A stretch of DNA of 64,000 bases from Ostreococcus lucimarinus (Eukaryota): NCBI GenBank assembly GCA_000092065.1, contig CP000589.1; one strand, 5' to 3'. Positions 9,419-36,222 of the stretch are shown here, in pieces. Within the stretch, counting starts at the first letter, position 1; every line of letters begins with the position of its first letter. Under the pieces are notes generated by a model. It had not been told where the DNA came from and ran no database searches. It saw only the letters and a program-made list of their open reading frames with translations. The translations under genes and the position numbers were made by a program.

Positions 9419-10525
9419 CTAGTGCGTCCGCTCGGCGGACATCACGTCGTTGAACGATTCCGGCGGCTCCGTCGCGAATGTCAACGTCTCCTCCTCAAAC
9501 GGCATGACGAGCTCGAGGGCGTGTAAGAACATCCTATACGAATCGGTATCGTCAGAGTACGCCATATCGCCCAAAATTGGATGCCCCGAATGCATCAAGT
9601 GCAAACGAATCTGGTGTCGCCGACCGGTGACGGGCCTGCACTCCAAGCGACTCACCTCGACGCCGCGATTGGCGCCGTCGAGCGTGCAGTAGCCGCGTTG
9701 CAACACTTTAAAGCTCGTCTCGCTCGCCTTTCCGTTTTCTTCGTCCACGCGTTCGCGAAATCCCTTCACGTCCGTCGGATCTTTCCCGAGTTTCGCGTTC
9801 ACCGTCCATTCGTCCTCCTTCGGCCAACCGAAGACGACGGCTAAATACTTCTTCTTCGCCAGGCGATCGCGAAACAATTTCGCCGCGTTCCCCGCGGCTT
9901 CTCGCGTGTGCGCCGTGAGCACCACTCCGCTCGTCGCCGTGTCCAGCTGATGACAAAACCGATGGTGCTTACCCGGATACTTCAAGTTCAACCAATCCTC
10001 GCAGCTCGCGTCGCCGTCCCATCGCGGCGTGAACCGCGTCTTCTCCACTCGATTTCCATCCGCGTCGTTCTCCATCCATCCTCGAGGCGTGTCCAGCCGC
10101 ACCGCGAACGGTTTATTCACCGCGACGTACCCTCGCTTTTCGCACTCGTACACGGTTTCGTATTTCCGTTCGAGCACGCCCGGCTGTCGCAGCGCGCACG
10201 CCGTCGCCGTCTCGTCCCCGAGCTCGCCGCGTCGCTCCAAAAATTCCAAGTACGACATTCTCGGCGCGATCTCCGTCGCCACGTCGTACGTTTGCGCGCG
10301 CGGGTGTTCGCGGAGCATCGCGTCGACGTCTTCGGCGCGCGCGCCGCGAGAGACGAGGCACTCGCGCGCGGTTTCGCCGTCGCGCGCGCCGGCGGCTCGA
10401 ACGCTGACCCAAGGCTGCGGGTCGTGTTTCATGACGCGTCGCGCGCGTTTGGACGCGCGCGCGGCCGAAGACGCGAGTCTGGCGCGAGCGAAGCGTTCGG
10501 TTCGCCTGGCGAGGGCGATTCGCAT
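9419..10525 (-). CDS. RluA-family pseudouridine synthase (RPUSD-like), possible mitochondrial presequence
   Basis: Catalytic-loop HQLDTATSGVVL and the conserved GRRHQIRLHL motif are present. The N-terminus is Arg-rich and amphipathic. An alternative start is the ATG at 10432. Confidence 0.8.
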   Translation of the reverse strand: MRIALARRTERFARARLASSAARASKRARRVMKHDPQPWVSVRAAGARDGETARECLVSRGARAEDVDAMLREHPRAQTYDVATEIAPRMSYLEFLERRGELGDETATACALRQPGVLERKYETVYECEKRGYVAVNKPFAVRLDTPRGWMENDADGNRVEKTRFTPRWDGDASCEDWLNLKYPGKHHRFCHQLDTATSGVVLTAHTREAAGNAAKLFRDRLAKKKYLAVVFGWPKEDEWTVNAKLGKDPTDVKGFRERVDEENGKASETSFKVLQRGYCTLDGANRGVEVSRLECRPVTGRRHQIRLHLMHSGHPILGDMAYSDDTDSYRMFLHALELVMPFEEETLTFATEPPESFNDVMSAERTH

Positions 10526-10594
10526 CGAGCGCGGCGCGGAATGCGGCGCGGCGCGGCGCGCGCGGAGAGCGCTCGGCGGCGCGCGGCGTCGCTA

Positions 10595-11578
10595 TTAAAA
10601 ATTAAACGCGGTGCTCCCCGCGCTGTCGGGAGTGCCGCGTTGGACTATGCCGGATATCGGAGGACTCGGGAAATCGTCTTCGTCGGGCGTGGCGTAACCG
10701 TCGTCGCTCGCCGCGGGCGACGGCGAACGCTCGGACGACGGCGCGACCGGAGCGACGTCCGCGCCGAGCAGCGCGCGCTCGGCGACCGCCATGAACTCGC
10801 GCGGATCGACGCCAGATAATTTATTCATCTCCCGAACCATTTCGGCGAGCATGACGCACTCGGCTTCGACGAGCGCGAGTCGCTCGCCTCGCTCGGCGGA
10901 TTCTCGTTCGCTCGCCTCGAGCGCGCGCGCCGTCTTTCTACACGTTTCCCGCGTCGACGCCGCGCGCGCGAGCCGCTTTTCCAGCTCGAGCGCGTCGTCT
11001 CGCAGACGCCGCTCGTTCGCGCGCATCGACTCGATCGTCTCGCGCTGCGTCTCGCACTCCACTTTCAGCGCCGCGCGTTCGCCGAGCGTCTCCGTCAACC
11101 GTTTTCGCAGCGCCAGCTTTTCCTCCGCCTCCGCGTCCGCGATCGCCTCCGCCTTCCCAAGCGCCCCTCTGAGCTCTTTCTCTCGATCCTCCAGCGCGCG
11201 CATCTCCTCGCGCGCCGTCTTCAATCGCGCCTCGAGCGCCGCGATCCTCTCGAGCGCTCGCGCGTCGTCGCCGTCGTCGCGCGTCGCCGTCGACGCGTCC
11301 GCGCGCGTCTCCTCGCGCGCCCTTCGCGTCGTCGACGCCGTCGCGCGCACCGTCGCTCGCACGCGCGCGTGTCGCAGCGCGCGATTCTCGCGCCGCAGCG
11401 TCTCGCACTCTCGCCGCAGCGCCGTCGTCTCGCCGTCGCTCGCCCGCGCGTTCGTCGTCGCCGTCGTCGTCGCGCGGTCGTCGTCGCCGTCGCGCATCTG
11501 TCGCAGCGCGCGCTCGAGCGCCGCGCTGCTCGCGCCGCGCGGCAGCCCGAATCGCGCGCGCAGGTCCTCGACCGACAT
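10595..11578 (-). CDS. coiled-coil protein of unknown function
   Basis: Heptad-rich E/R/A/L sequence (ALERIAALEARLKTAREEMRALEDREKELRG...). Start chosen at the ATG at 11578 (MSVEDLRARFGL). The ORF continues upstream to 12307 but is antisense to the WD40 gene there. Confidence 0.45.
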   Translation of the reverse strand: MSVEDLRARFGLPRGASSAALERALRQMRDGDDDRATTTATTNARASDGETTALRRECETLRRENRALRHARVRATVRATASTTRRAREETRADASTATRDDGDDARALERIAALEARLKTAREEMRALEDREKELRGALGKAEAIADAEAEEKLALRKRLTETLGERAALKVECETQRETIESMRANERRLRDDALELEKRLARAASTRETCRKTARALEASERESAERGERLALVEAECVMLAEMVREMNKLSGVDPREFMAVAERALLGADVAPVAPSSERSPSPAASDDGYATPDEDDFPSPPISGIVQRGTPDSAGSTAFNF

Positions 11579-11702
11579 ATCGCTCGCGCGCGACGCCGAG
11601 ACGCGCGCGACGCGCGATAGACGCGACGCGACGCGTCGCGAGCTGTCGCGATGCGATTTGAATTCGCAAAAGTCATTCGAATCGACACTCCGCGTCGCGC
11701 GC

Positions 11703-13172
11703 ATGCGACGCGCGCGCGCGACGCGCGATGCGTTCGCGCGCGACGCGTCGTCGCGCGGTCGTCGCGACGCGCCGCGCGCGCGCGACGTCGCGGGCGTCGT
11801 CGAGTCGCCGTACGTCGTGCGGTTCAACTTTAATCGCGACGACCGCGGCGCGGCGCTCGCGATCGGCGACGAGCGCGGGCGCGCGACGATCGCGCGCGCG
11901 AGCGTGTCGCAGCGCGACGACGGGCGGCGGCGCGCGACGGCGATCGCGGCGCACGAGAACGCGGTGTACGACGTCGCGTGGACGCGCGACGACGCGCGGG
12001 TGCTCACGGCGAGCGCGGATCGCGCGGTGGCGATGTTCGACGCGGAGACGGGACGGATGCTGGCGAAAATGATGGGACACGGCGCGAGCGTGAAAGCCGT
12101 GGCGACGGCGCCGACGCAGCGGGAGGTGTTCGCGAGCGGAGGACGGGACGGGCGGTTGATTCTGAGCGACGCGCGGACGAGGCGGGGCGCGGCGAACGAG
12201 GCGGAGGACGCGGACGCGGGCGAAGTGACGCCGACGCGGACGGTGCGACGGGCGCACAGGGCGCCGGGGGCGGGGACGCGGGCGAGCGCGGCGCTGCACA
12301 GCGTCACGTCGGTGGCGTTCGATGGGTCGGGGAGCGTCGTGCTGAGCTCGGGAGGGTCGGACGGGTTGGTGAAAATGTGGGACGCGCGGAAGATGAAGGG
12401 CGCGATAGGAGTTTTAGAGGACGAGCGCGAGGACGCGTTCGTGCGAGGTTCGTTCTACGATGTCGGATTGGGCGCGCGGTTCGGCGGTGAGGGCGCGCGC
12501 GCGACGCGGGCGTCGCGAGGGATCTCCGGGATCGCCGTCGATCCGACGTCGTCGCGCGTCGTCGTTTCGTATCTCGACGACCACATGGCGATGTTTGACG
12601 CGAACGATCCGCGAGGGAAGCCGCTGCGACACTTCGTCGGTCACAGGTCGAGATCGTATTACATCAAGCCGACGTTTTCGCCCGACGGCGATCGCGTCGC
12701 GTGCGGCTCGCTGGACAACGACGTGCACGTGTGGGACGTCCGCGACGCGAGCGCGCCGTCCGTCGCGCTCGATGGTCACACCGCGAGCGTGAGCTGCGTG
12801 CACTGGTCGCCGACGGATCCTCACGCCCTTGCGTCGTGTTGCGACGACGGCGAAATCAGACTGTGGCGCTTTGACGGCGCGCGAAAGCCCAGCGTCCGCG
12901 CTCGCGTCGACTCGCGAGCCAAGCGCCCGGCGCCGCCGTTGCACCCGAACATCCTCCGCGCCCTCGGGCGCGCGCCCACCTTCGACGACTCCGCCTCGGC
13001 GGACCACGACATCGCCATCCCCGGCGCCTTCGCGCCCGCGTCTCCGTCGGCGCCGACGCGCGTCCTCGCCGCCGACGTCCCGCCCGCGAAGCGTCGCGAG
13101 CGCGTCGAGCCATCGCCGCGCCGCCCGTTTCGCGACGTCGCCAACGTCCGCGGCCGACGCGCGCTTTCCTAG
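11703..13172 (+). CDS. DTL: WD40-repeat protein DTL/CDT2-like (CRL4 substrate receptor)
   Basis: Seven WD repeats align with denticleless/CDT2 (HENAVYDVAWTRDDARVLTASADRAVAMFD..., GGRDGRLILSD, CDDGEIRLWRF). The ORF upstream of the ATG at 11703 is Ser-rich junk antisense to the previous gene. Confidence 0.8.
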   Translation: MRRARATRDAFARDASSRGRRDAPRARDVAGVVESPYVVRFNFNRDDRGAALAIGDERGRATIARASVSQRDDGRRRATAIAAHENAVYDVAWTRDDARVLTASADRAVAMFDAETGRMLAKMMGHGASVKAVATAPTQREVFASGGRDGRLILSDARTRRGAANEAEDADAGEVTPTRTVRRAHRAPGAGTRASAALHSVTSVAFDGSGSVVLSSGGSDGLVKMWDARKMKGAIGVLEDEREDAFVRGSFYDVGLGARFGGEGARATRASRGISGIAVDPTSSRVVVSYLDDHMAMFDANDPRGKPLRHFVGHRSRSYYIKPTFSPDGDRVACGSLDNDVHVWDVRDASAPSVALDGHTASVSCVHWSPTDPHALASCCDDGEIRLWRFDGARKPSVRARVDSRAKRPAPPLHPNILRALGRAPTFDDSASADHDIAIPGAFAPASPSAPTRVLAADVPPAKRRERVEPSPRRPFRDVANVRGRRALS

Positions 13173-13433
13173 CCCTCAGCGCGTCGCGAGGTCGCGACGA
13201 ACCACCATCGCGCGCGCGTCCACGCGCGCGTTTCGAGCGCGAACGCGCGCGCGACGCGTCGAATCGACCCCCCGTAGCGCGTCGGGACTCGCGAAATCTC
13301 TCGAGTTCGTTGAAACGACAAAAAAATCTCTCTTCGTTCAAACCGTCGCGCGCGCCGATCGTCACCGCGCGCCGCGCGCCGCGCCGCGCCGCGCTCGACG
13401 CGAGAAGCGAACGCGCGTCGATTTCGCCGCGCC

Positions 13434-15910
13434 ATGGCGCTGCTCGAGCGCGCGCGAAGCGAACTGGACGCCCTCGAGCGCTCCGTCGCCGAAGGGGACA
13501 CCGCGCGCGCGACGCGCGACGACGACGACGCGACGCCGGCGAAACGCTCGACGACGGCGACGCCCGATCCGTGGACGCGAGCGGCGCCGGATGACGCGCG
13601 CGCGACGCGCGCGGGGCTGACGGTGAAGACGAAGACGCGAGGGGACGGCGAGGGACGGCGGGACGCGACGACGACGACGTTCGCGGAGGCGCTGGCGGAA
13701 GAGTTGAAGGACGCGCGAGGGAATCCCGCGACGCCGGCGTCGAGGGACGTGAGCGATGTGCCGTTGCACGATGCGGTGAAACGGGCGGACGCGGAGGCGG
13801 TGCGAACGATGGTGAGACGAGCGACGGAGGGGGGCGCGAGACGAGAGCCGTCGTGGCCGCCGAGCAAAGCGGCGTTGAATCGAATAGATTCGCTCGGCGA
13901 TTGCAGAAGCGCGCCGCGAGGAGTGGACGCGAAGAATGCGAACGGAGACACCGCGCTGGCGGTGGCGTGCGCGCTGGAGGATGGGAAGGCGTGCGAAGAG
14001 ATGGTGAAGATTTTGGTGGACGCCGGCGCGGACGCGAGCGCGCTTTCAAACGGAATGGCGCCGGTGCACTGGGCGTGCGCGCTAGGGCATCGCGACGCGC
14101 TCGCGTGCATGGTCGACGCGTCGTCGACGTCAATCGTGAATCTTCGTGCCGAAGATGGGTCGACGCCGTTGCTCGTGGCGGCGGAACACGGTAAAATCGA
14201 AGTCATACGATGGTTGCTCGAGCGCGGCGACGTCGACGCGATGGCGAGAAACGCGCATGGACGCGACGTACTCGGCGCGCTCGGCGCGAAGATGCGTCGA
14301 CAGAGTCAATCGGCGAGGAGTGAGTTACGTGCGGAGATATTTGAACTCATTCCTTCGCTGCGTTTGGCGTTTTTGTCCCATCCTGATTGCGAAGAACACG
14401 TGTCGTTCAAGCCACATCAAGAGAGCCCCGAGCGCATAGTCGCCATTCTCGCCGAGTTGCAGCGCGTGATCGACCGCGGTGAACTCGCAATGGGAGAGCT
14501 AGATAAGACATGCACGTTCGGCGCCGCCGAACCGTCGGATATCCTCCGAGCGCACGATGAGAATTACGTCCGCGTGTTGGCCGAACTCAGCGATCGCGTC
14601 GGGCAAACGCCCATCGCGTTCACGCCGTACTGTCAAAACCATAACGGCGTGCCAGAAAAACTACAAAAACCCGCGGAGAACAGTGACACATTCTTTTCAC
14701 CGGGCACGTTGCAAGCGGCGCTTAGAGCTGCGGGCGGGGTCATTCACGCCGTGGATAGAGTCTTGGATGGGAAGAATAGGAGCGCTTTCGTATGCTGTCG
14801 CCCGCCCGGTCATCACGCCGGGATCAACGGCGCCACGGAAGGCGCGCCGTCGAGCGGCTTTTCCATTTTGAACAACGCCATGATCGGTATGTGCGCACTT
14901 TGCGCGAGCGACGCGAGCGATCGATTTTTCTTGAAACGGACGCACACGCATAACCGCGGCGCTTCTACGACACGCGTCGCGGACATGATGCGCGTCCTAC
15001 ATCGACGTCCACTTTCAATGACAGAGAGTTCTGAGCGTGGCTCTGCTGACAGATACGGGTGGTACATTTCGCGCGACTCGACTAACTGACTGACGCTGAC
15101 GTTCACAACGCAGGCGCTTTGCACGCCATCGACGTTCGCAAATGCATGCGGGTCGCCGTGGTTGATTTCGACGTGCATCACGGGAACGGCACCGAAGAAA
15201 TCGCCAGGCATTGGCTCACGAAGCAGCGCGCGAGAGACGACTATCACCGGCACAAATCTCCTGACTTGTTCTTCGCGTCGATTCACTTGGCGGATGATGG
15301 AACGTCTTCGGGCATGCTTCCATTCTACCCGGGCAGCGGCGTGCAGGATGATTTGATGAACAATATCGTCAATGTCGTCGTCCCACCGATGTGGCTCGCC
15401 AAGGGCGCAAGCGCCACGGCACACGCGGAAACCGGCGAGCGCGCTCGGAAAAAAACAAAACGCTTCGCTGACTCTGAAGATGCCGCCGCCGCGCCGCCGC
15501 CGAAGACCATCGCCATTGAACCCGAGCAGCAACAAGGTGGGCGCCTAGAGTGGATGAAGGCGTTTCGAGAGCGCTTGATTCCCGCTCTCAGGGCGTTCGG
15601 TCCTGAGCTCATAATCGTGTCCGCGGGATTCGACGCGGCGGCTTCGGACGTAGGAAACTTGGGCGTCGATCCGCGTCGAAACACGAGGCACCAAGGCGCT
15701 AACCTTCGCGCTGAAGACTACGAGGACATGACGAAGTTGCTCGTAAACGTGTCGAACGTTTGCGATGGGCGAGTTGTATCTATTTTAGAAGGGGGCTACG
15801 GACACTTGATGAGCGTCGGAAAATCGAGCGACGGCGCGCAAAATGCGTTGACGCTCGGTAGAGACGTCTTCGCCAAATGCGTCAAAGCGCACGTCCAGGC
15901 GCTCATCTGA
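13434..15910 (+). CDS. histone deacetylase (class II-like) with N-terminal ankyrin repeats; two exons joined as 13434..14886 + 15114..15910
   Basis: Ankyrin repeats (GDTALAVACALEDG..., DGSTPLLVAAEHGKIEV...) are followed by the HDAC domain split over two frames: ...CCRPPGHHAG...FSILNNAMIG | ALHAIDVRKCMRVAVVDFDVHHGNGTEE...SAGFDAAASD...LEGGY. Splicing at G|GTATGT...CAG|GC restores the frame. Confidence 0.8.
14887..15113 (+). other. intron (227 nt) of the ankyrin-HDAC gene
   Basis: GTATGT donor at 14887; ACTAAC and CTGAC branch-like motifs lie 20-35 nt upstream of the CAG acceptor at 15111-15113; phase 1. Joining gives the canonical HDAC sequence. Confidence 0.75.
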
Positions 15911-19162: not shown

Positions 19163-21364
19163 TCAAGCGCCCGCGGGACGAGCTGACGAGCAACGGAAAC
19201 ACGTCTGGCGCGAACTGAAGCAATGCGCGGAACAGCTCCCACAGATCCAATCCCCACTTCTGAAGTTTTCCGTCTGCGGACCGCCGTCGCGAGAACCTTC
19301 GGACTGCGGCGGAGCTTCGTTGCCCGTCTTCGCGTTGCTGCACTTGAAACAATGATCACGCGACTGAAAATTGTGCGCGGAACAGCTCCCACAGATCCAA
19401 TCCCCAGCACGAAACACGCCAGCTCCCGGACCACCCGCTTCCGAGCTCGCCTTGGACGTCCCGCCCGGCGGCGAAAAGCTCCCTTCCGCGCCTTCGTCTT
19501 TGCCTCTTTTACATCGAAAGCACGAATTTCGGCTCGCGAAGCAATGCGCGTTGCATCGAGCACACGTCCAATCGCCCGGTCGCCGCGCTCCTTGCGGCGC
19601 AGGCACCTCTGAAGACGTCGCCGCCGGAAAATTCTCCTGCGCCGGCGCGCCACCGGCGACGCGTAACCCCAACCACGCAAACGTCAGCGTTAGGTACGGC
19701 GTCCCCGACGGCGCGTTCACGTTGGCGATGGGATCAAGGTGCAAAGCCAATGGAGCGATACGCAACAACCCACTCGCGGCATCGACGCCGCGCTCGCGCA
19801 CCGAACCGACCACGACGCAACTCCCAGTGTTGCTGTGACCCATGGCGCCTACGACGGCTTGATTCACCGGCGCACACACCAAACGCACGTTCGCTCCTTG
19901 GTTCGAAACGACGACCGGCGTGCTTTCGATATCAGCCAACAGGTGCGTGTCCTGCACGATCTCCAACCGAGCCCCTTTGCTCAATCGCGCGCCGAGCTCA
20001 GCCGCGAGACTTGTGCCGTACGGATTCGCCACGCGATCCAACATTGACAAAAACCGCGCCGACCCGACGTTGGCGAGCGTCGATTGCATCATGTTCACCA
20101 GAGGCGCCAAACGCTGCGACCAAGCCGCGGCGTTTTGAGGACGCACGGCGTGTCCACCCGTCAGACTCGTGCATAAAATTCCCGAACCCTCCGCCCCAGA
20201 CGTGAGTTGTTGAAACACGCTGAGTAGTTGCTCGGGCGTCTCCACTTGCATCGATGCCACACCGCCGCCACCGTGCGGCGTCGGGTGCGAAGACACACCT
20301 GCAGCCGCACGCTGCGCGAAGGACCCGCCCGGCGGCGTCGGCGGCGGAACAGCCGCCACGGGCGTGACGGTGGGACCCACCGCCGCTGGTGCCGCCGCTG
20401 AGTGCGCCTTCATCGCCCCGATCGCGCTCGCGTACGAAGGCGGCGCCGCAGCCGCCGCAGGCGCCATAGCCGCTCGCTGCGGTGGCGGCGTGCTCGGCAT
20501 CGGAGGCGCCACCGGCGCCGCGGGCGCCGCCGCGCCGACGCTCGCCGAAGCCGGCGCCGCGCCGAACGCCGCCGTCCCGCTCGAAGCCGCGCCGGACCCG
20601 AAGCCACCACCCCCAGTGGAAAACGACGACACGCTTTCAAACCCACCGAACCCACCACCCAAGCCGAGCCCTAACCCGAGGTTCAACCCGAGCCCCGGCC
20701 CGAGGCCCCCGCCCAAGCCGCCGCCGTCGCCCGCGCCGCTCATCCCCGTCAGCGCGATTTGCGGATTCGGAAACGGATGCGCCTCCTCGCTCAACTGCAC
20801 GCTCACGCATCGCAGCTCCGGCAGCAGCGTCCGCTGTCCCGCGAGGGACTCAGACAACCACGCCGCGAACCCCGCGGCGTCCGTCCCCGCGAACCGCCCC
20901 AGCGTAATCAGTTGCTGATCGGGCCGCTGACTCGCGTAATACGTATCCGCCCCCGGCAACGCCGCGCTCAGCGCCTGCGCGATCCTCAACGACGCGGGAC
21001 AATCGATCCCGACCAACACGCACCCATTCTGCATCACTTTACACTTCGGCAACACTCGCCCGGACGCCGGTCCGTGCGCGCTCGCCACGCGCCGCAGCGC
21101 CTCCGTCACGCCTTCGCCTCCCAAGCCCGTGCCTTCGAGCCCAGACACGAGCGCCACGTGCGGCGGCGCGCATCCCATCCCTATCATCGAGTCCGCGGTC
21201 CCGCGCGTCGTCAGTCGTCCGAGATCGCGCGCGCGCGTTCGATTCTTTCGCCAATTCTCAAAACTCGCGATCGCATCATCGATCGCATCATCGCGCTTCT
21301 CGCGCTTCTCCCGTCGTCTCGCGCGTCCTTCGTCGCGCGAGCGCCGCGCGAGACGCGCACGCAC
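19163..21364 (-). CDS. RanBP2-type zinc-finger protein with Gly/Ala/Pro-rich FG-containing low-complexity region
   Basis: Three C-terminal RanBP2 ZnF units (GDWTCARCNAHCFASRNSCFRC, GDWICGSCSAHNFQSRDHCFKC, GDWICGSCSAHCFSSRQTCFRC). The central region (GLGGGLGPGLGLNLGLG...GGFGGF...GGFGSG) is low complexity. The N-terminal domain is unassigned and the start is uncertain. Confidence 0.6.
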   Translation of the reverse strand: MRARLARRSRDEGRARRREKREKRDDAIDDAIASFENWRKNRTRARDLGRLTTRGTADSMIGMGCAPPHVALVSGLEGTGLGGEGVTEALRRVASAHGPASGRVLPKCKVMQNGCVLVGIDCPASLRIAQALSAALPGADTYYASQRPDQQLITLGRFAGTDAAGFAAWLSESLAGQRTLLPELRCVSVQLSEEAHPFPNPQIALTGMSGAGDGGGLGGGLGPGLGLNLGLGLGLGGGFGGFESVSSFSTGGGGFGSGAASSGTAAFGAAPASASVGAAAPAAPVAPPMPSTPPPQRAAMAPAAAAAPPSYASAIGAMKAHSAAAPAAVGPTVTPVAAVPPPTPPGGSFAQRAAAGVSSHPTPHGGGGVASMQVETPEQLLSVFQQLTSGAEGSGILCTSLTGGHAVRPQNAAAWSQRLAPLVNMMQSTLANVGSARFLSMLDRVANPYGTSLAAELGARLSKGARLEIVQDTHLLADIESTPVVVSNQGANVRLVCAPVNQAVVGAMGHSNTGSCVVVGSVRERGVDAASGLLRIAPLALHLDPIANVNAPSGTPYLTLTFAWLGLRVAGGAPAQENFPAATSSEVPAPQGARRPGDWTCARCNAHCFASRNSCFRCKRGKDEGAEGSFSPPGGTSKASSEAGGPGAGVFRAGDWICGSCSAHNFQSRDHCFKCSNAKTGNEAPPQSEGSRDGGPQTENFRSGDWICGSCSAHCFSSRQTCFRCSSARPAGA

Positions 21365-21595
21365 CCGCTCGCGGTTCGCTCTGCGCGATGAACTGCCCCT
21401 CGAACGCGCTGCCGCGGTGCCACTGCAGCGCCTGCGCGAGATGCGACACCGCGTGTTCGCTCACGTCGTCGAAGCGCAGGCGCGCGTACGCGTGCGCGCC
21501 GAGCGCGTCGCTCGACATCGCGCGTCGCGCGTCCTCGCGGCGCGGTGCTCGCGCGTTCGCGCGTCGCGCTGTGCGGCGTCGGCACTCTCGCGCGC

Positions 21596-24500
21596 ATGGC
21601 GACGTTCGACGCGCGCAAGGCGCTCGAGCGCGACGCCGTCGTGCTCGGCGACGCCGAGGCGAGCGCGAGGGATCGCAGTCGCGCCGGACGCGTGGACGCG
21701 CGGTGCGAGGCGATCGTGCGCGAGGTGTTCGCGTCGGATGATTTCTTCACGACGAGCTCGTGCTCGGGACGCGTGAGCGTGTTCGCGGAGCGCGGACGCG
21801 GGAAGCGCGAGGGCAAGGGCGAGGGCGGGACGTGGGCGTACGTGTCGCACGAACCGGCGCTGGGCGAGGCGGTGGCGGCGGCGGTGCGCGCGCACGCGGG
21901 GGAGGGGGAGGAGGGCGACGGCGACGGCGAAGGCGGCGGCTGGGCGAAACCGACGCTGACGCTGCGGTTTGAACCGTTCATATTAGCGGTCGAGGCGCGG
22001 GATTTAGACGCGGGAGAGGCGTTCGTGCGGTGCGCGCGAGAGTGTGGGTACAGGGAGAGCGGGATCACGGCGAGTGAGAAACGGGTGATTTGCGCGGCGC
22101 GATGTCAGCTTCGGTTGGACGCGCCGGTGGTGGTGGACGGCGAACGCTTGGTGAGCGATGAGGGGTTGGAGACGCTCGTGCGGTTGGCGAACGAGAAGTT
22201 TCAAGTGAACGCCGATCGAATGGAGCGGTTTCGGGAGGCTTTTAACGCGATGTGCGCGAAGAGGGCGGCCGCGAAGGCGGGGCCGAGCGACGAAGGAGGC
22301 GCGCTCAAGTGCGTCGAGGCAAAGAAGCAAGTCGCGAAGGCTGTGAAAGACGCGCTGAAGCGGGGTGGGTGGTTAGATAACGCCCGTAGATCTGCGACGA
22401 AGAAGAACGACGTGGGTGACGTGGAGTGCGTGATTTTACCCATCAAGCGCGGCGCGGAGACGGCGATTTCCTCAACCGTGACTTCGGACGCAAAGCTCGT
22501 GTTGGCGGCGATTGAAGCGGGAGACGTCGTCGTGTGCGACGACAGCGGGCACGTAAACGGTGGTCTTGGTCTGATGTCTGCGAAGAAGACGCAGAATCCA
22601 GTGACGCAAATGAAACAAGAAGTGGCGGCGATGCTTGAGGCCAAAGGCTTAAATGTCAACTTGGCGCAAGAAGCGCCGACGCGCTGGGAAAAGTTGGGTG
22701 ATTTGGTGTTGCTTCCCGCGAACGCGTTTACGGCGAGCGACTTTAGCGCGTTCGGTGCCGAGTTGTACGCCTGTGTGGCGCGAGTTCTCGGCGCATCGCG
22801 CGTTGCGCGCCAAGCGCCGGTGAGCCAAGGGCCAAAGCGCGAATCTCGCGCGGTGATGCTTTACCCCGAAGGTGCCGATGGTTGGGTCGAGACGAAAGAG
22901 CTCGGCGTAACGTATGGATTAGATGTCACGAAAGTTATGTTTAGCAGTGGTAACGGCACGGAGAAAAACCGCATGGGCGCGGTCGGCGCAAACGGCGAAA
23001 CCGTCGTGGACCTGTTCGCTGGCATCGGTTACTACACTTTGCAGTTACTCAAGAACGCGGGCGCGGCCAAGGTGTACGCGTGTGAGTGGAACCCTAATAG
23101 TTGCGAAGCCTTGCGTCATAATCTGCGCGTGAACGGCGTGGAGTCACGGTGTGAAGTGTTAGAGGGCGACAATCGTCGAACCGCGCCGACGGGCGTCGCC
23201 GATCGCGTCTTACTAGGATTGCTCCCGCACGCTGAGATGTCGTGGGAAACCGCGATTAAAGCGCTGAAACCGAAAGGTGGGGTATTACACGTGCACTCAA
23301 ACGTTAACAGTGGCGATGAGGACGAGTGGATGGTGCGTTTGGTGAGCGAGCTGAAGTCACTGGCCGAGACGAACGGTCGCGGCGATTTAGACATCGTCGT
23401 GGAACACCTCGAGCGCGTGAAATGGTACGGTCCGCGCATTCGACACGTCGTGTGTGACGTTCGCTGTACCAGTCGAACGCATAAAGATGACCTCGCCGCG
23501 ACGCGAAATATGGCCCCGAAAAGCGCTGTCTTGGCGAGACAACCTGCGAGGACGTCGGGAACGAATGTGAGACGCGTTCATCGTCCGTTGCCCGCGGACT
23601 TCAAGAACACGATCGCCGCGCAGCGCGTCCCGGCTGTCATCAGTGGACTCGATATCGGCCAAGCGCCGTGGACGTGGACGCCAAGTTATCTGGCTTCCCT
23701 CGACGGCGTTCCAGAGAAGCTTGTGAGCGTTCACGTCAGTCGTGATCCCAAGCTGGACTTCGTGCGCAAAAACTTCAAATACGTCGTGATGCCTTTTGGT
23801 GAACTACTGGCGAAAGTGAACGATGCGAGCGATGACAATTTCTACTATTTGCGAAGCATTGGGGAGAATCCGCGAAAAGAGCCGGCGCACGCGCTTCTAC
23901 AATTCCCATCGTTTGCGCGCGATTTGAAACTTCCGAGCGAGTTTTGGGGATCCGAAGACAACTACTTCAGCGCCGTCGTTCGCGTGAGCAGTGGCGATTT
24001 ACAGCTCTGGACGCATTATGACGCCATGGATAACATGTTGATTCAGCTTCATGGCGAGAAGCGTGTGCTTCTGTTCCCACCGTCCGTGTCAGGCGACTTA
24101 TATCTTGAAGGTTCGTCATCCGTCGTCCGCGACGTGGACGATCACGATCGAGAATCGTTCCCACGATTCGCGCGCGCTCGAAAAGCGGCGTTGGAAGTCA
24201 TCTTACAACCAGGTGACGTATTGTACATCCCCGCGCTTTGGGCGCACCACGTCACCGCCTTGCACGGCCCGTCGATTGCGCTCAACGTATTTTTCCGACA
24301 CCTCCCCACGAGTGGATACCCATCGAAAGATTTGTACGGGAACGCCGACCCAATCGCGGCTGCGAGTGCGCTCAAATCAATAAACTCCGCGATCGAATCC
24401 TTGAAAGAGTTGCCGCTAGATTACCGTGTATTTTACGCTGGCGTCGCAGCGGCGAGACTGGAGAGTGAGCTTGGCGTCGAATCCGCTCGAAGAGCGCTTG

Positions 24501-30295: not shown

Positions 30296-30664
30296 TCACG
30301 GAATCTGTCGATTATACGGTTGCGACCCCCCCAGCGCGGTTCGCTCCGCGCGCTCCGCCTTGACCCGCTCCACGATCGGCGTCAGGTAAAAATCAAACGG
30401 CGTCTGCGTCGCCTGCTCCTCCTTCGTCAGATACGAGTGTTTCATCGACAGATCGATCGCTCGCTTCAACCGCTGCGCGCGCATGTCCCGCTCCTCCGCC
30501 GTCAGCCGCTTCAGCGCCTCGCCGACGTCCAAGTCTTGGCCCTCGTCGAGCAGATCGTCGTATCGCAAGCCGTATTTCCGCAGTTCATCCCCCACCGTGC
30601 GTCGGTAGTTGACGGACATCGACTTGAGCATCGGTTCGAGCATCTTTCGCATCGCGCGCGACAT
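30296..30664 (-). CDS. QCR7: ubiquinol-cytochrome c reductase complex 14 kDa subunit (QCR7 / UQCRB)
   Basis: 122 aa from the ATG at 30664: ...NYRRTVGDELRKYGLRYDDLLDEG...KRLTAEERDMRAQRLKRAIDLSMKHSYLTKEEQ...FDFYLTP. The rest of the 224-aa ORF is upstream read-through. Confidence 0.8.
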   Translation of the reverse strand: MSRAMRKMLEPMLKSMSVNYRRTVGDELRKYGLRYDDLLDEGQDLDVGEALKRLTAEERDMRAQRLKRAIDLSMKHSYLTKEEQATQTPFDFYLTPIVERVKAERAERTALGGSQPYNRQIP

Positions 30665-30870
30665 GGCGCGCGTCGTCGTGTCGCGTCGCGTCGCCGGCGA
30701 TCGCGATCGCGGTCGAGTCTCGGTGTCGGTTCGAGTCACCACACGGATCATTACGTCGTTTGAGACTGTGTACCACACGGACGACGACCGCGCGACGCCG
30801 GACGCGACGCCGCGCGCGCCAGACGACGGCGCGCGGGCGACGGCGGCGCGCGAGGTCGCGCGCGCGCGCG

Positions 30871-33585
30871 ATGACGTCGTCGTCGATCGACGACGCGCTC
30901 GACGTGCGATATCGCTGCGTGGAGACGACGACGCGACGCGATGAAGATTCAAACGCGCGGGAAACGTCAACCGTCGCGACGCGCGATTTCGAACGCGCGC
31001 GCGCGCTGATGGCGCGCGTCGGACGACGAGGGGCGCGCGACGCGCGAACGATCGTCGAGGACGCGTCGACGGGAGATGGGCTCGCGCGGACGATCGCGGC
31101 GGCGGCGAAGCGAGGGATGGAGCGAGGCGAGGACTGCGCGACGATTTTCGCGCGAGGCGCGGGCGACGACGACGCGGACGCGGCGCGAGCGGTGCGGGAG
31201 ATGGGAGCGGTGGCGATGGTGGTGGATGCGATGGTGGAGTCGTGCGAGGGGATCGATCGGGGGAAGTGGGAGGTGAGCGCGACGTGCGTGGGGTGGTCGA
31301 CGAGGGAACGGGCGGGCGGCGGCGCGGTGGATTTGTTGGACGACGCGTCGGCGGGGGACGAGGGGGCGGGAGTCGGGCGAGGGATGACGGTGGTGCACGT
31401 GGAACGCGCGGAGGACGGAGTTGTGGCGTTTGAGAGCGCGATGGCGCGCGCGGATGAGGTGTTTCGCGAAGGTGCGTCGACGACGGGGCGGCACGCGGTG
31501 TTTACGTTACGCTTGAAGTTGTGGGCGGAGGCGACGACGGAGACGGATGACGAGAGCGGGCTCGCGAACGAGCCCACGGTGACGCGCGTGCACTTTGTGT
31601 TTTTGGCGCCGTACGTGCCGGCGCCGGGGGCGTTCGATGGGCGAGACAGTCGCTCGGTGGCGGCGCGCATCGAGTGCACAAAGTCGACGACGGCGATGAT
31701 GGCGGTGCTGCGCGGTTTGCGGCGAAATCAGGGGCAACGAGGGACGACATTTCGCAACTTGAACGCCTGGCGGGAATCACCCCTCACGCGTTTGATGTGG
31801 GCGAGCGGGATGTCGGAACTTCGAAGCGCCATGCTCATCGTTCTTTGCTCGGACGCGCTGCGATACGCCGTGGAGGGTGACGAAACGTCGCCTCTCGTGT
31901 TGGCACCCGGGACCGAGGGCGCGTTGAAATTCGCGTTACAACTCAAGGAACATTCGGATGATGGCGATCCCGCACCGAGAACGCGTGCGCCTCCGGTGCC
32001 CACGCCTACGAAGAATTCGAACGCGCGCGGTAGCGGTCGTGGAATGAAGACGTTGCGCGCGGAAGCGCCCCCGTCGACATCCGCGGCGGCGCGGCAAAGG
32101 CAACCGACAGCGGCACCGCCCGCGACGCAACCCAATCGCGCGTCGGACGTCGCTGCCTCAACAAACGGAAACATTACGAACGAACAGATCGACGCTATCG
32201 TGCGCGTCATCCGCACGCACTCGAGCGGGCTCGCGGGACGTCGTATGGAGAGCACGATTCGAAATTTGAGCGCCGAATGGACGCGAATGGCCAGCGCGCA
32301 CGAAACGATTCTCGAAGAGTTCTCCGTGCTCGAAGACCAACTTTTAGCTGCGCAAACTCGTGAAGACGAGGCGGTGCAATATGCCGAACAAGTCGCCGCT
32401 GATCTCGCGGTGACTTCGAGGTGGTGCGAGACGCTCGAAGCGGAGCAAGCGAGCGCAAAAGCGCTCGCGGAAAAGGCGGCGAAGGATGCGGCGCGAGTAG
32501 CTGAAACGCGTGCCGTGGAGTTGGAGAATCGCATCAAGGAATTAGAACTAGAGCTTTTGCGTAATTCTGTGCCGGAAATGGAGCGTACGCGAGATGAAGC
32601 GGAGAAAGCAGCGCGAGAGGCGCGCGAAAAGTATCAAGAAGCGCACGATCAACGCGAGAGCGCTTTGGAGGCGCTGGAGAACGAAACCGCCGCCAAGCGA
32701 GAGTTGATGGAGCAAGTCGCCACCTTACAGCGTCAATTGGAAGATGTGGAACGTGTCCGCGCGAACGATCGGGCGGAAATCGATCGTACTCGCGAAGAGC
32801 TACGTGCTCGATACCAAGCGGAGAAAGACTCGCAAGATCGCTTCGCCAAGGCACAGAGAGAACACGAATTGGAGCTGAAGACGGCGCGCGAAGCAGTCGC
32901 AGAACGCGAGGATCAGTTGATTAAAATGCGTCGTGATCGCGACGACGTGCTGCACAAGCTACATCTCAAAGAAGAGGAAGTCGTCGAGGCGCGAGCAAAC
33001 ATGCGCGCGAGTTTATTAAACGTCGAGGCGCTGCAGACGGCGACAAATGAAGCCAAAGAGACGCGGCAAGCTTCAAACAAGGAACTCGAAGACCTCAGGT
33101 TATGCAACTCCGACTTGCTCGTTCAAGTCAAGCACGCAAAGCGAGAGCTCGAAGACACATCGGTGGCCCTGAACAAACTGACAGAGAAATTACAAGACCT
33201 CGAGGACGGATCGGAGAGTGCGATTCGCAAACGCCGAGAAGCTGAGGATGAGATTCACGATCTCAAGCACTCCATAATCGATCTCGAAGCCAAGAACAAG
33301 GCACTTGAAATGGACCGCGAGGTGGCTTATCAAGCCGCCGACGTGGCGCGCACGGAGAACGCGAAGGTTTCGGCGTCTGTTTTGGATCTGACTGAGGAAG
33401 TCGCGCGACTCAAATCCGCCCTCGTTGCGGCTCAAGATTCCACGCGCGCGCTTCTCGATGAAGAAGCCGCGCGGTTACAACGACTCGCGCCAACGGTTCA
33501 AGATAGCGATTACGTCAGTCCGGCGTGGTTACATGATAATAGCTGGCAGCAGCCGAGCGTAACGCTTGTATCGTCGTCCTCGTAG
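30871..33585 (+). CDS. kinesin-like protein with a degenerate (predicted ATPase-dead) motor domain plus about 550-aa coiled-coil tail
   Basis: The N-terminal 330 aa keep the kinesin motor scaffold, but every catalytic motif is changed. The P-loop TIFAYGQTGSGKT becomes TIFARGAGDDDAD. Switch I SSRSH becomes TTGRHAVFTLRL. Switch II LVDLAGSE becomes VFLAPYVP. The neck-proximal LTRLM...MLIVLCSDALRYA is retained. A long ELK/R coiled coil follows. Confidence 0.55.
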   Translation: MTSSSIDDALDVRYRCVETTTRRDEDSNARETSTVATRDFERARALMARVGRRGARDARTIVEDASTGDGLARTIAAAAKRGMERGEDCATIFARGAGDDDADAARAVREMGAVAMVVDAMVESCEGIDRGKWEVSATCVGWSTRERAGGGAVDLLDDASAGDEGAGVGRGMTVVHVERAEDGVVAFESAMARADEVFREGASTTGRHAVFTLRLKLWAEATTETDDESGLANEPTVTRVHFVFLAPYVPAPGAFDGRDSRSVAARIECTKSTTAMMAVLRGLRRNQGQRGTTFRNLNAWRESPLTRLMWASGMSELRSAMLIVLCSDALRYAVEGDETSPLVLAPGTEGALKFALQLKEHSDDGDPAPRTRAPPVPTPTKNSNARGSGRGMKTLRAEAPPSTSAAARQRQPTAAPPATQPNRASDVAASTNGNITNEQIDAIVRVIRTHSSGLAGRRMESTIRNLSAEWTRMASAHETILEEFSVLEDQLLAAQTREDEAVQYAEQVAADLAVTSRWCETLEAEQASAKALAEKAAKDAARVAETRAVELENRIKELELELLRNSVPEMERTRDEAEKAAREAREKYQEAHDQRESALEALENETAAKRELMEQVATLQRQLEDVERVRANDRAEIDRTREELRARYQAEKDSQDRFAKAQREHELELKTAREAVAEREDQLIKMRRDRDDVLHKLHLKEEEVVEARANMRASLLNVEALQTATNEAKETRQASNKELEDLRLCNSDLLVQVKHAKRELEDTSVALNKLTEKLQDLEDGSESAIRKRREAEDEIHDLKHSIIDLEAKNKALEMDREVAYQAADVARTENAKVSASVLDLTEEVARLKSALVAAQDSTRALLDEEAARLQRLAPTVQDSDYVSPAWLHDNSWQQPSVTLVSSSS

Positions 33586-33738: not shown

Positions 33739-36222
33739 ATGTCGTCACGCGGTGGGCGTCAAGACACCGCGAGGGAAGCGCACGTGGAGGACGTTGCGCG
33801 AGTTTTCTCGAGCGCTTACGCAGGGAAAAACACAGTTGGCTTTTGCACGTTCGATCGAGACGCGAACGCGTTCTCGTTGGCGCAGGCGATCGTGAGAGAT
33901 GATGACGAGGATGTGCTGAAGCTATTCTTTCGTACGAGTGGTGCGGACGTCGTGTATTGTTCGAGTGAGTTCAAAGCCGCAATCGAGAAGATGAGCGACG
34001 CGCGCGCGACTACGATTGTGGGAATGCCACGAAGGGAGTTTGGAAACTCAATCGACGCCATGGAAAAGCTACGCGACGTTGGGAAGTTTGAGAGTCGCGG
34101 AGATTTGGCTTCGGTGATAGAGTTGCACGACAACGAAGACGCGGTCATCGCCGCGGGCGGTCTGATCGGCGCCTTGCGGCGAAACGAAGGTCTGAACTTG
34201 CAATTGAAGACGTTCCCGGCAAACGTACAAGAGTTCAACGTCGCAAACTACCTCAGCATTGATATCGAATCGCTATGCGCGATTGGCGTGTTCGTTCCGG
34301 AAGAGTTCCGCGAAAATCAGTTCACAAAAGACATGTTTCAAATCTTTCGTGAAGCCTGCGGAACGTCGAGCGGAAGGAAGCTTCTCGAGCTTTGGTTCAA
34401 GCGCCCAATCTTGAACATGGACGTGTTGCAAGAGCGCCGCGACGCGGTTGAGCATTTCGTCAAGTCTGGATGCCTGAACGCATTGCGCAAACGCATGACG
34501 CCCACGATCGACGCGCATCGTCTACTGTCCGCGATGTCATCCAATGACGCACGAGTGGTGCTACAAACGAAGAGCGACTGGACAAAAATCACAAAATACC
34601 TCGGCGCAGTCTCGTCTTTGTACGATTTCTGCGTAGACGCGTATTTTGATGAAGGTTTGAACGAGCCATCAGCCACTACACCGACCGCAATACGAGACTT
34701 CATGGCCTGTGTGATGTATCGCTTGCCCAAGCTCCGAGCAATCGTCGATCGCGTCATATGCGTAGAAGAGATTTACCCCTTGACTGAACACGAATCTGCG
34801 GTGTATACGTCGTACGTGCGCTCGGGCGTGTGTCAAGAGCTAGACGAATTACGATCGGTGTATCATGGACTGCCGGACCTACTGAAACATGTGCTGGACG
34901 CCGAGCTAACAAAGGTGCCAAACTTTCTTAGGCGCGCGAACGACGTCTGTGAGAAACTAGCAATCTGCTACCTCCCGCAAACGGGTTACCTGTTGAAGAT
35001 CGACGATGAAACCGTGCCCGACGCACTATTGGAAGAAATGGATTGGAAGTACGTGTTCGGCGACGCTACGACAAGCTATTACGAGTTTGCCGCCGGATTA
35101 TGCCTAGCGAACGAGCTCGGCGATGTGTTGCATTCCATCGTCGACTTGCAAGAATCCATATTGCGAGAGCTTCGAGAGGAAATTCTGGCACACGCATCGT
35201 TGATGCGCGATATCTCACGATGCGTGAGCGAAATCGACGTTCTACTAGCATTCGCGGACATTGCCGTCAATTACAACATGTGTCGGCCGACCCTGCGCGA
35301 CGACGACGCGTTCGAAGTCGCCGGCGCGAGGCACCCACTCTACGAATCCTTCATCGAAGGGGAATTCATTGGCAACGACGTTCACATGCCGACAGATCGC
35401 GACCGCGTCATCGTCCTTACCGGGCCTAATGGCAGTGGTAAGACTGTGATGATGCAAACGATTGGTCTTATCACGTATCTGGCGCACTGCGGATCGTTCG
35501 TTCCAGCCACTCGCGCCGTCATCGGCTTGACGGATCGCATATATACAGCGATGACTGCGCTCCGCGAAGATGCCGAGCGCAAGACAAGAGTCCCTGAGAG
35601 TGGTTTCACATACGCGCTGCATCAGGTGGCGCGCATGATTAACAACGCGACTAGACGTTCTTTATGTCTGCTGGATGAGTTCGGCATCCAGACCCAATCC
35701 ACCGACGGCGCGGCGCTCTTAGCCGCCATCGTCGAACATTTCGGGAAGCGAAAGCATCCACCGCGTGTACTCTTCACGACACACTTTCGCGAGGTGTGTG
35801 ATCCCACGATCGTCGGCCCGATCCCACACATGGTCGCACACTGGTGCATGCGCGCCATGGTAAATCCATCGGCCACCGACGATGACGACGTGCACGAAGT
35901 CGAGATGCTCTTCAAACTCGAACGCGGCGTCGCCGATTCCAGCTTCGCGCTTAGTGCGTGCAAGCGCGTCGGTTTTCCCGACGAATTCATGGACCGCTTG
36001 AAATACATCATTCAGCGCGAAAAACGCGCGCGGGCGGGCGAAGACGTTCCTCCGCTCGATCCTTGGGCCGACCCCAAACAGGACGCCAAGCAAGAGGTTT
36101 ACAAAGCCATCTGGGAGCGCTTCGAGCGCGCTCGAGCCGACCCCACCGACGCGGCGATGGAAGATTTCTTGGCCTTTTTCGACTCGCTCGCGCTCGACAA
36201 ATACGGCGTGCCCATCGTTTGA
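33739..36222 (+). CDS. MSH5: MutS homolog 5 (meiosis-specific MSH5-type; no mismatch-binding domain I)
   Basis: Walker A TGPNGSGKT, MutS signature LLDEFGIQTQSTDG (compare human MSH5 IDEFGKGTNTVDG) and the TTHF motif. Length 827 aa and absence of the N-terminal mismatch-recognition domain fit MSH5. Confidence 0.78.
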   Translation: MSSRGGRQDTAREAHVEDVARVFSSAYAGKNTVGFCTFDRDANAFSLAQAIVRDDDEDVLKLFFRTSGADVVYCSSEFKAAIEKMSDARATTIVGMPRREFGNSIDAMEKLRDVGKFESRGDLASVIELHDNEDAVIAAGGLIGALRRNEGLNLQLKTFPANVQEFNVANYLSIDIESLCAIGVFVPEEFRENQFTKDMFQIFREACGTSSGRKLLELWFKRPILNMDVLQERRDAVEHFVKSGCLNALRKRMTPTIDAHRLLSAMSSNDARVVLQTKSDWTKITKYLGAVSSLYDFCVDAYFDEGLNEPSATTPTAIRDFMACVMYRLPKLRAIVDRVICVEEIYPLTEHESAVYTSYVRSGVCQELDELRSVYHGLPDLLKHVLDAELTKVPNFLRRANDVCEKLAICYLPQTGYLLKIDDETVPDALLEEMDWKYVFGDATTSYYEFAAGLCLANELGDVLHSIVDLQESILRELREEILAHASLMRDISRCVSEIDVLLAFADIAVNYNMCRPTLRDDDAFEVAGARHPLYESFIEGEFIGNDVHMPTDRDRVIVLTGPNGSGKTVMMQTIGLITYLAHCGSFVPATRAVIGLTDRIYTAMTALREDAERKTRVPESGFTYALHQVARMINNATRRSLCLLDEFGIQTQSTDGAALLAAIVEHFGKRKHPPRVLFTTHFREVCDPTIVGPIPHMVAHWCMRAMVNPSATDDDDVHEVEMLFKLERGVADSSFALSACKRVGFPDEFMDRLKYIIQREKRARAGEDVPPLDPWADPKQDAKQEVYKAIWERFERARADPTDAAMEDFLAFFDSLALDKYGVPIV

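Follow-up and report, generated by a model that had tools for sequence, protein, structure and literature searches.

Can a kinesin motor domain lose the motifs with which it handles nucleotide and still be kept by selection, and if so, for what? The question is raised by a gene in a 64,000-nucleotide (nt) stretch of the Ostreococcus lucimarinus genome (GenBank assembly GCA_000092065.1, contig CP000589.1), referred to as the window. Its 904-amino-acid (aa) product, termed the pseudo-kinesin herein, was singled out by a first-pass annotation, made from the sequence alone, as a kinesin-like protein whose motor is dead. We find that the N-terminal head descends from a kinesin motor domain, and that the protein is very probably kinesin-derived, catalytically dead, and functional. 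From N- to C-terminus, it consists of a kinesin-homology head that is non-catalytic, a linker rich in Pro, a coiled-coil stalk of ~430 aa, and a short conserved tail. With regard to its role, we favor, at a probability of roughly 0.6, a non-catalytic head on a dimerizing stalk that would serve as a microtubule anchor or as the partner of an active kinesin.

Kinesin ancestry of the head

The family profile comprised ten distinct sequences from six deep lineages (~45 to 60% identity between lineages), collected through a representative-protein search (P0002-P0004), one metagenome scan (23 loci), and exact cluster look-ups. Profile-profile alignment (hhalign) of this ten-sequence family alignment with 36 kinesins gave P = 7.9e-5 over 225 columns, running from the beta3/P-loop region to beta8, and further runs against 118 trimmed kinesin motors gave P = 3.2e-5 and 1.6e-5. 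The hhalign score of 44.7 compared with 15.7 ± 2.8 (maximum, 22.9) for column shuffles, 18.3 ± 2.9 (maximum, 25.2) for shuffles of 8-column blocks, and 15.4 for the protein's own C-terminal half, which was used as a control. Judged from these profiles, the resemblance of the head to kinesins exceeds chance.

A hidden Markov model (HMM) of the family was also searched against 177,635 distinct PDB sequences and yielded a single match below E = 1, the human KIF7 motor domain (E = 0.002); the alignment covers 250 residues and keeps the same register. AlphaFold2 models were computed without templates from alignments that held only pseudo-kinesin family members and no kinesin. When these models were compared with the whole PDB using Foldseek, the top 50 matches were kinesin motors for both, with best E values of 5e-4 for the model based on four sequences and 3e-6 for that based on nine (163 matches at E <= 1e-3). 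The predicted order of helices and strands over aa 68-360 follows that of kinesin motors (alpha1-beta3-alpha2-beta4...alpha3-beta6-beta7-alpha4-alpha5-alpha6), with the beta8 equivalent predicted as helical. The best-predicted parts of the second model, at aa 102-141, 175-199, and 207-224, had predicted local distance difference test (pLDDT) values of 55 to 79, and values fell below 50 for aa 1-67. The only PDB match of the four-sequence family HMM, an oxidoreductase (E = 0.12), was rejected as spurious.

The motif equivalences (Table 1) were consistent across all alignments, that is, the hhalign runs and the HMM search, with aa 111-361 aligned by hhalign to kinesin motor positions 136-391. 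GAGDDDAD (nt 31156-31179) stands where the kinesin P-loop has GQTGSGKT, and the HMM search pairs TIFARGAGDDDAD with ATVFAYGQTGSGKT of KIF7. TTGRH and FLAPYV stand in the switch I and switch II positions, with only His, Leu, and Ala in common with the kinesin motifs. All three replacements had been reported in the first-pass annotation; they were verified by translation, and profile-profile alignment puts each in register. The proposed collinearity of the head with a kinesin motor was likewise borne out, by hhalign (P = 7.9e-5 and 3.2e-5), by the family HMM through KIF7, and by Foldseek; the outcome named as speaking against it, a head with no kinesin-fold similarity, was returned by none of the three approaches. 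In the neck-proximal block that had been described as retained, WRESPLTRLMW and AMLIVL are present and the use of ALRYA as alpha6 is ambiguous, being selected by a greedier hhalign run while the default run selects TEGALKFALQLKEH.

Of the features that define the kinesin superfamily, the head shows remote collinear homology and the motor fold; the Pfam profile is not matched, and the P-loop and both switches are missing. It is in this sense a test case for detection: standard profile annotation misses the homology, which is recovered when shallow family alignments are used together with fold search.

Motif decay and selection along the gene

Besides the window protein, nine further sequences represent syntenic orthologues, which together span six deep Ostreococcus-like lineages. 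A divergently transcribed UCR_14kD gene lies upstream in every lineage examined, and a MutS-family gene lies downstream in all lineages except F (L030), where no MutS match was found within the 4-kb downstream flank; these shared flanks identify the genes as positional orthologues. Both switches are degenerate in all ten family sequences. The switch I columns read AAYH, AAHH, AEHH, ADHH, RDHH, or VERH in the other lineages, so that the His alone is invariant, and the switch II columns read [FM][LV]A[PQ]YV in all lineages. An ATPase cycle of the kinesin kind is not possible in a protein that has no P-loop, switch I, or switch II. Orthologues with intact motifs would have pointed to an error of sequencing or assembly, and neither was encountered: all nine further sequences lack the switches, and gene calls on contigs from 243 blocks of public collections of metagenomes and assemblies include an identical protein of 904 aa, which argues that the degenerate motifs are real.

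Walker A is absent from five of the six deep lineages, including that of the window protein. The remaining one, lineage B' (L015:3995-5197, L016:1242-2450; P0202-P0216), reads FWLRGDDGGGKSDWTM at the P-loop columns. In the relic, GDDGGGKS..TM, Walker A (GxxxxGKS) is formally intact and precedes TM, and the register with kinesin FAYGQTGSGKTyTM is exact. The motif is fixed in 13 of 13 records covering these columns, and shuffling of the N region produces it at any position with a probability of 0.007. Because loss of the switches is shared by all lineages and decay of the P-loop is lineage-specific and incomplete in B', the pattern suggests that the switches decayed first and the P-loop later, and lineage B' looks like a snapshot of stepwise motor decay. 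The first-pass statement that every nucleotide motif had been lost is therefore accurate for the window protein and, regarding the switches, for all lineages, and does not extend to B', which keeps GxxxxGKS in register.

Estimates of the ratio of nonsynonymous to synonymous substitution rates (dN/dS, or omega) were saturated between lineages (dS > 1) and were replaced by those from three close pairs (dS = 0.14 to 0.26). In these pairs, aa 1-110 had omega values of 1.07, 0.96, and 0.79 (pooled, 0.84 for aa 1-56 and 1.24 for aa 57-110), whereas pooled omega was 0.10 to 0.12 in every sub-window of aa 111-362. Omega was 0.33 in the linker and 0.08 to 0.15 in the stalk, and dN was 0 in the tail in the three close pairs. 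Comparison of the window protein with L014 (dS = 0.15) alone gave 0.05 for aa 174-381, 0.11 for the stalk, and 0 for the tail. Within species, aa 1-110 carried 3.6 amino-acid variants per 100 aa versus 0.5 to 0.8 in the core and stalk, from small numbers in each case, and between lineages the pseudo-kinesin core retained 55 to 66% identity versus 41 to 52% for the neighboring MutS protein. Strong purifying selection acts on the core (aa 111-362) as well as on the stalk and the tail, while the former nucleotide-binding third of the head drifts neutrally.

The drifting segment has kept its reading frame. Over aa 1-110, frame 0 is free of stop codons in nine of nine sequences, compared with one to eight stops in the other frames, the G+C content at third codon positions is ~0.8, and there is no conserved internal Met; by this coding signature, the neutral N-terminal segment is still translated. 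Taken together, the omega pattern and the synteny show the gene to be functional. The purifying selection on a dead motor that had been anticipated was thus found in aa 111-362 (omega, 0.05 to 0.12) and not in aa 1-110, which includes the P-loop relic. The same holds for the 'TIFA-G' box, which had been described as kept: it is in register and lies in the third of the head that evolves at an omega of ~1.

Coordinates of the gene, the parts of its product, and the surrounding features are collected in Table 1. The coiled coil, initially put at 550 aa, proved to be shorter and to be preceded by the Pro/Ala/Thr-rich linker. The stalk is presumed to be a dimerization element, and neither it nor the tail motif YVSPAWLHDNSWQ matches a Pfam family; the tail motif may be a partner- or cargo-binding peptide. 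TPTK, within the linker motif PAPRTRAPPVPTPTK, fits the minimal cyclin-dependent kinase consensus S/T-P-x-K, its Lys being lost in lineage B', and could be a cell-cycle phosphorylation site. In public databases the protein is named 'hypothetical protein', and some fragments carry the name 'chromosome segregation ATPase', a generic coiled-coil label. In two database fragments (P0005 and P0006) that correspond to the N-terminus of the gene, the substitutions A->V, R->C/W, P->L/F, and T->M recur systematically, the pattern of C->T-converted DNA; they probably stem from bisulfite-type or deaminated reads that were assembled in a public run and gene-called like ordinary sequence.

Table 1. Coordinates and assignments of the features discussed in the text (positions are those of the window)
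Feature	Position (nt)	Strand	Assignment or evidence
Pseudo-kinesin gene	30871-33585	+	single exon; uninterrupted ATG-to-stop open reading frame of 904 aa, stop codon included
aa 1-110, fast-evolving N-terminal segment	30871-31200	+	decayed equivalent of kinesin beta1-alpha1-beta3-P-loop
ERGEDCATIFARGAGDDDAD, beta3/P-loop			kinesin l.GY.aTVFAYGQTGSGKT
TIFARGAGDDDAD (aa 91-103), beta3/P-loop relic	31141-31179	+	aligned by hhalign to kinesin aTVFAYGQTGSGKT
aa 111-362, conserved core of kinesin-homology domain	31201-31956	+	equivalent of alpha2b through alpha6
GAVAMVVDAMV, alpha2b			kinesin dGiIPRsi.yLF
WEVSATCVG...DLLD, beta4			kinesin v.vSy.EIYnE...DLL
GRHAVFTLRLKL, switch I/beta6			kinesin SRSHaiftv.v
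TTGRH (aa 204-208), switch I relic	31480-31494	+	kinesin SSRSH; only His208 invariant
TRVHFVFLAPYV, beta7/switch II			kinesin gKl.FVDLAGSE
FLAPYV (aa 244-249), switch II relic	31600-31617	+	kinesin DLAGSE; Asp, Gly, and Glu all lost
aa 260-312, alpha4-L12-alpha5 equivalent	31648-31806	+	aligned to INKSLfaLGkVIsaL and YRDSKLTKLL
ECTKSTTAMMAVLRGL, alpha4 equivalent	31672-31719	+	kinesin INKSLfaLGkVIsaL
WRESPLTRLMW (aa 300-310), L12/alpha5	31768-31800	+	kinesin YRDSKLTkLLm
aa 320-361, beta8 equivalent and candidate alpha6	31828-31953	+	hhalign
AMLIVL (aa 320-325), beta8 equivalent			kinesin tLMIAc
TEGALKFALQLKEH (aa 348-361), candidate alpha6	31912-31953	+	picked by default hhalign
aa 363-440, Pro/Ala/Thr-rich linker	31957-32190	+	composition; contains PAPRTRAPPVPTPTK
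PAPRTRAPPVPTPTK, conserved Pro-rich linker motif	31969-32013	+	directly after the kinesin-like head, where the neck linker would be
aa 441-870, alpha-helical coiled-coil stalk	32191-33480	+	heptad-like periodicity; 1 Pro and 3 Gly in 430 aa
aa 871-904, C-terminal tail	33481-33582	+	conserved motif YVSPAWLHDNSWQ
YVSPAWLHDNSWQ, tail motif	33511-33549	+	Y, P, W, L, D, S, W, and Q invariant in all lineages
UCR_14kD gene, divergent	30296-30643	-	flanks the pseudo-kinesin gene
MutS-family gene	33739-36222	+	directly downstream of the pseudo-kinesin gene
KIF12-type kinesin, comparison gene outside the feature	6318-8081	-	PF00225, E = 2e-82; GQTGSGKT, SSRSH, and DLAGSE intact

The downstream gene has MutS_III and MutS_V matches and no match for the N-terminal mismatch-recognition domain, as in MSH4/MSH5-like proteins. 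In related loci a Rad1 gene lies a few kb beyond it, and in lineage C (L010:10398-12314) a ferric-reductase gene is inserted between the MutS and DUF3611 genes. The presence of an intact kinesin elsewhere in the window, noted in the first-pass annotation, was confirmed, on the minus strand; the best named relative of this KIF12-type protein is an Ostreococcus tauri protein (63% identity). It carries a Ser/Asp/Thr-rich insertion of ~25 to 40 aa directly after the P-loop, at the position of loop L5 (...TYTMLGRAGARRGASESASSTRDDVETASTSSPTMNDVGSDDGLIGR...), which is absent from the PDB kinesins aligned to it. Across the window (1-64000), G+C content alternates between ~0.54 to 0.59 and 0.66 to 0.71 in 2-kb blocks (for example, 0.71 at 10001-14000 and 20001-22000).

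Readings of the conserved head

In kinesins, alpha4-L12-alpha5 forms the main tubulin-binding face. In the pseudo-kinesin, the net charge of the equivalent segment (aa 260-312) is +8 for the window protein and +6 to +8 for nine of the ten family sequences, compared with +3.0 ± 1.1 for the same segment in 105 genuine KIF12-type motors. The preceding stretch, aa 111-259, is acidic, with a net charge of -7 to -17 in the nine sequences that cover it. Equivalents of kinesin-1 K256 and R284, which, like R278 and K281, we take to be microtubule contacts in the kinesin-1 numbering, are basic or nearly so in the family. The constrained part of the head would accordingly be the half that bears the tubulin-binding face, kept strongly basic, and since it carries this face the head is most likely a microtubule binder without nucleotide control, attaching electrostatically. 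We put the chance that microtubule binding is the retained activity at slightly less than even. The stalk would dimerize the dead head. A homodimer could then act as a static microtubule anchor, tether, or crosslinker; in a heterodimer, the dead head could provide a non-catalytic foothold for an active kinesin, a role shown for Vik1/Cik1 with Kar3 and proposed for TbPH1 with KifX2A.

A number of results weigh against the reading of the pseudo-kinesin as a kinesin-derived microtubule anchor or partner, and they bear on different parts of it. The canonical microtubule contacts are retained only in part: at the position of R278, four lineages have Arg and B and B' have Gly, and at that of K281, Pro is invariant. 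Moreover, the neutral segment at aa 1-110 would supply the central strands beta1 and beta3, and the fold may be incomplete or remodeled. Such observations would be expected if the protein were kinesin-derived and did not bind microtubules, its conserved two-thirds now serving, on a coiled-coil scaffold, as a module for cargo or for protein-protein interaction. The lack of constraint on the N-terminal third of the fold is consistent with this account, as are the invariant family motifs that have no kinesin counterpart (APYVPxPG, EGDETSPL, and PAPRTRxPPxPTPTK). However, the tubulin-face equivalent is the most basic part of an otherwise acidic domain, exceeding real motors in this respect, and the best-kept kinesin relics (TKS... 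and WRESPLTRLMW) fall exactly in alpha4 and alpha5. We consider re-use without microtubule binding, the main rival reading, rather unlikely, while giving it appreciable weight.

Other results bear on the ancestry itself, and some of them would be explained if the kinesin resemblance were due to chance or composition and the N-terminal domain had another origin. Pfam detected no kinesin domain in the pseudo-kinesin, where the control kinesin at 6318-8081 scored 277 bits, and neither the full protein nor aa 1-370 gave a Pfam match of any kind at E <= 10. A phmmer search with aa 1-400 matched none of the PDB sequences, and an exhaustive one of 1.84 billion representative proteins yielded seven matches, all orthologues or fragments thereof and none a kinesin. 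BLASTP against the window's own kinesin aligned only the WRESPLTRLM/YRDSKLTKLL block (E = 0.047). With only four family sequences, hhalign gave P = 0.015, so the signal depends on profile depth, which is a weakness. KIF7 is rich in Ala, Arg, and Gly, and composition may set which kinesin ranks first. The AlphaFold models had low mean pLDDT values (36 from four sequences and 44 from nine) and Foldseek TM-scores of only 0.26 to 0.40, and they serve for fold assignment only, with no pocket or surface geometry readable from them. Nor was a relative found outside the genus-level clade to show the ancestral state, or an ancestral intact motor identified: all 23 loci of the metagenome scan fell within one genus-level clade, and no Bathycoccus or Micromonas orthologue was among them. 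Word-indexed protein searches matched nothing with aa 1-400, not even the protein itself, and only four members of the same family with a C-terminal profile; this index misses the main clusters of the family (those of 124, 214, 36, 34, and 30 members), so its negatives are weak and absence from Bathycoccus and Micromonas is not established. Against an origin by chance, four database-wide or controlled tests converge on kinesin and on nothing else, and five motif relics follow one another as in the kinesin motor, in addition to a Walker A relic in exact register. We therefore regard a chance resemblance as very improbable.

It is more improbable still that the protein is a very divergent yet active nucleoside triphosphatase or motor. 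The formally intact Walker A of lineage B' would fit such an enzyme, but GK[ST] is missing from the window protein and from four further lineages, every lineage including B' lacks the switch I Ser and Arg and the switch II Asp, Gly, and Glu, and an omega of ~1 in the P-loop region is incompatible with a maintained active site. Finally, a decaying pseudogene or spurious GC-rich open reading frame, as might be suspected from the neutral aa 1-110 and from the long antisense frames that overlap the gene, as is usual in GC-rich DNA, can be dismissed almost entirely given a 2.7-kb frame intact at one syntenic site in six deep lineages, omega values of 0.05 to 0.15 over 80% of its length, and an amino-acid sequence of core and stalk that varies very little within species. 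The antisense frames themselves, at 30585-31679 (364 aa) and 31728-32537 (269 aa), are typical artifacts of GC-rich sequence and not genes.

Known non-catalytic heads and the microtubules of Ostreococcus

The pseudo-kinesin shares with the non-catalytic kinesin-homology class a dead kinesin-fold head kept by selection, and it has a conserved ~430-aa heptad-like stalk that may pair with itself or with an active kinesin. The budding-yeast proteins Vik1 and Cik1 have non-catalytic heads that bind microtubules, pair with the kinesin-14 Kar3, and act as a 'foothold' for the active partner (PMC4338441). They resemble the pseudo-kinesin in having a kinesin-fold head without a nucleotide site, which is missed by ordinary sequence searches, and a long coiled coil. 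Unlike them, the pseudo-kinesin displays visible, collinear relics of the kinesin motifs, and the N-terminal third of its fold is unconstrained. Common descent with Vik1/Cik1 was rejected: the head sits at the opposite end of the protein, true kinesins give a stronger fold score, and the clades differ.

TbPH1 of Trypanosoma brucei has an N-terminal kinesin-like head that was judged inactive, followed by a coiled coil, and is a tight partner of KifX2A (10.1101/2021.09.29.462327). The two proteins are found on a specialized set of microtubules, in what the authors called 'a rarely reported occurrence' (10.1101/2021.09.29.462327). The order of an inactive N-terminal head and a coiled coil is that of the pseudo-kinesin, but TbPH1 is still recognized as a kinesin motor domain and has only two Walker A substitutions, whereas in the pseudo-kinesin erasure extends to the P-loop and both switches, Pfam detects nothing, and there is no PH domain.

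KIF7, like Costal2 a relative of kinesin-4, was the top match of the family HMM and ranked first in both Foldseek searches as well. It is described as a non-motile scaffold on microtubules, built of an N-terminal head and a long coiled coil (10.64898/2026.02.06.704517). It differs from the pseudo-kinesin in that its P-loop and switches are kept and nucleotide is bound (PDB 7rx0 and 6mlr are AMPPNP complexes). An origin among the kinesin-4 proteins, as the rank of KIF7 might imply, was not accepted, since the other kinesin-4 structures, KIF4 and KLP-12, were not preferentially matched and a compositional cause is plausible. Animal KIF26A/B (kinesin-11) and VAB-8 of Caenorhabditis elegans belong to the kinesin family and are regarded as microtubule-associated scaffolds devoid of motor or ATPase activity, and standard profiles still detect them as kinesin motor domains. 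They differ in being animal-specific, and motif erasure is much greater in the pseudo-kinesin. By analogy, Vik1/Cik1 and TbPH1 are the closest to the pseudo-kinesin in their way of working; the KIF26-like comparison made in the first-pass annotation remains apt as a looser, scaffold-type parallel to proteins that are still recognizable kinesins.

A dead kinesin head on a coiled coil is a known kind of protein, and the Ostreococcus case is an independent instance of it. What sets it apart is that the head is N-terminal and more eroded than in known examples, with an unusual split between constrained and unconstrained parts. Our literature search found no paper on this protein or on any pseudo-kinesin from Ostreococcus or another green alga, in agreement with the initial impression that none had been described in picoalgae. 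Non-catalytic kinesin-fold heads are rarely reported (Vik1/Cik1 and TbPH1), and none was found from the green lineage.

The family can be viewed as a natural experiment in which aa 111-362, including the basic alpha4-L12-alpha5, survive the loss of the ATPase while the P-loop third drifts. Cells of O. tauri contain one or two microtubules, located next to the nuclear envelope, and a conventional spindle was not observed (PMC1939878). With almost no spindle, each conserved microtubule-related protein of Ostreococcus is a candidate for a role in chromosome segregation. One could go further and suppose that green picoalgae independently evolved a Kar3-Vik1-type arrangement with an N-terminal head, in which the 430-aa stalk joins the dead head to one of the few active kinesins of Ostreococcus, or a homodimer that tethers the single microtubule to the nuclear envelope or to chromosomes, an extension that we hold to be unlikely. 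If true, the pseudo-kinesin would belong to the core of the smallest microtubule apparatus known among eukaryotes, and its order of decay, from the switches to the P-loop and with lineage B' caught midway, would provide a natural time series from motor to pseudo-motor.

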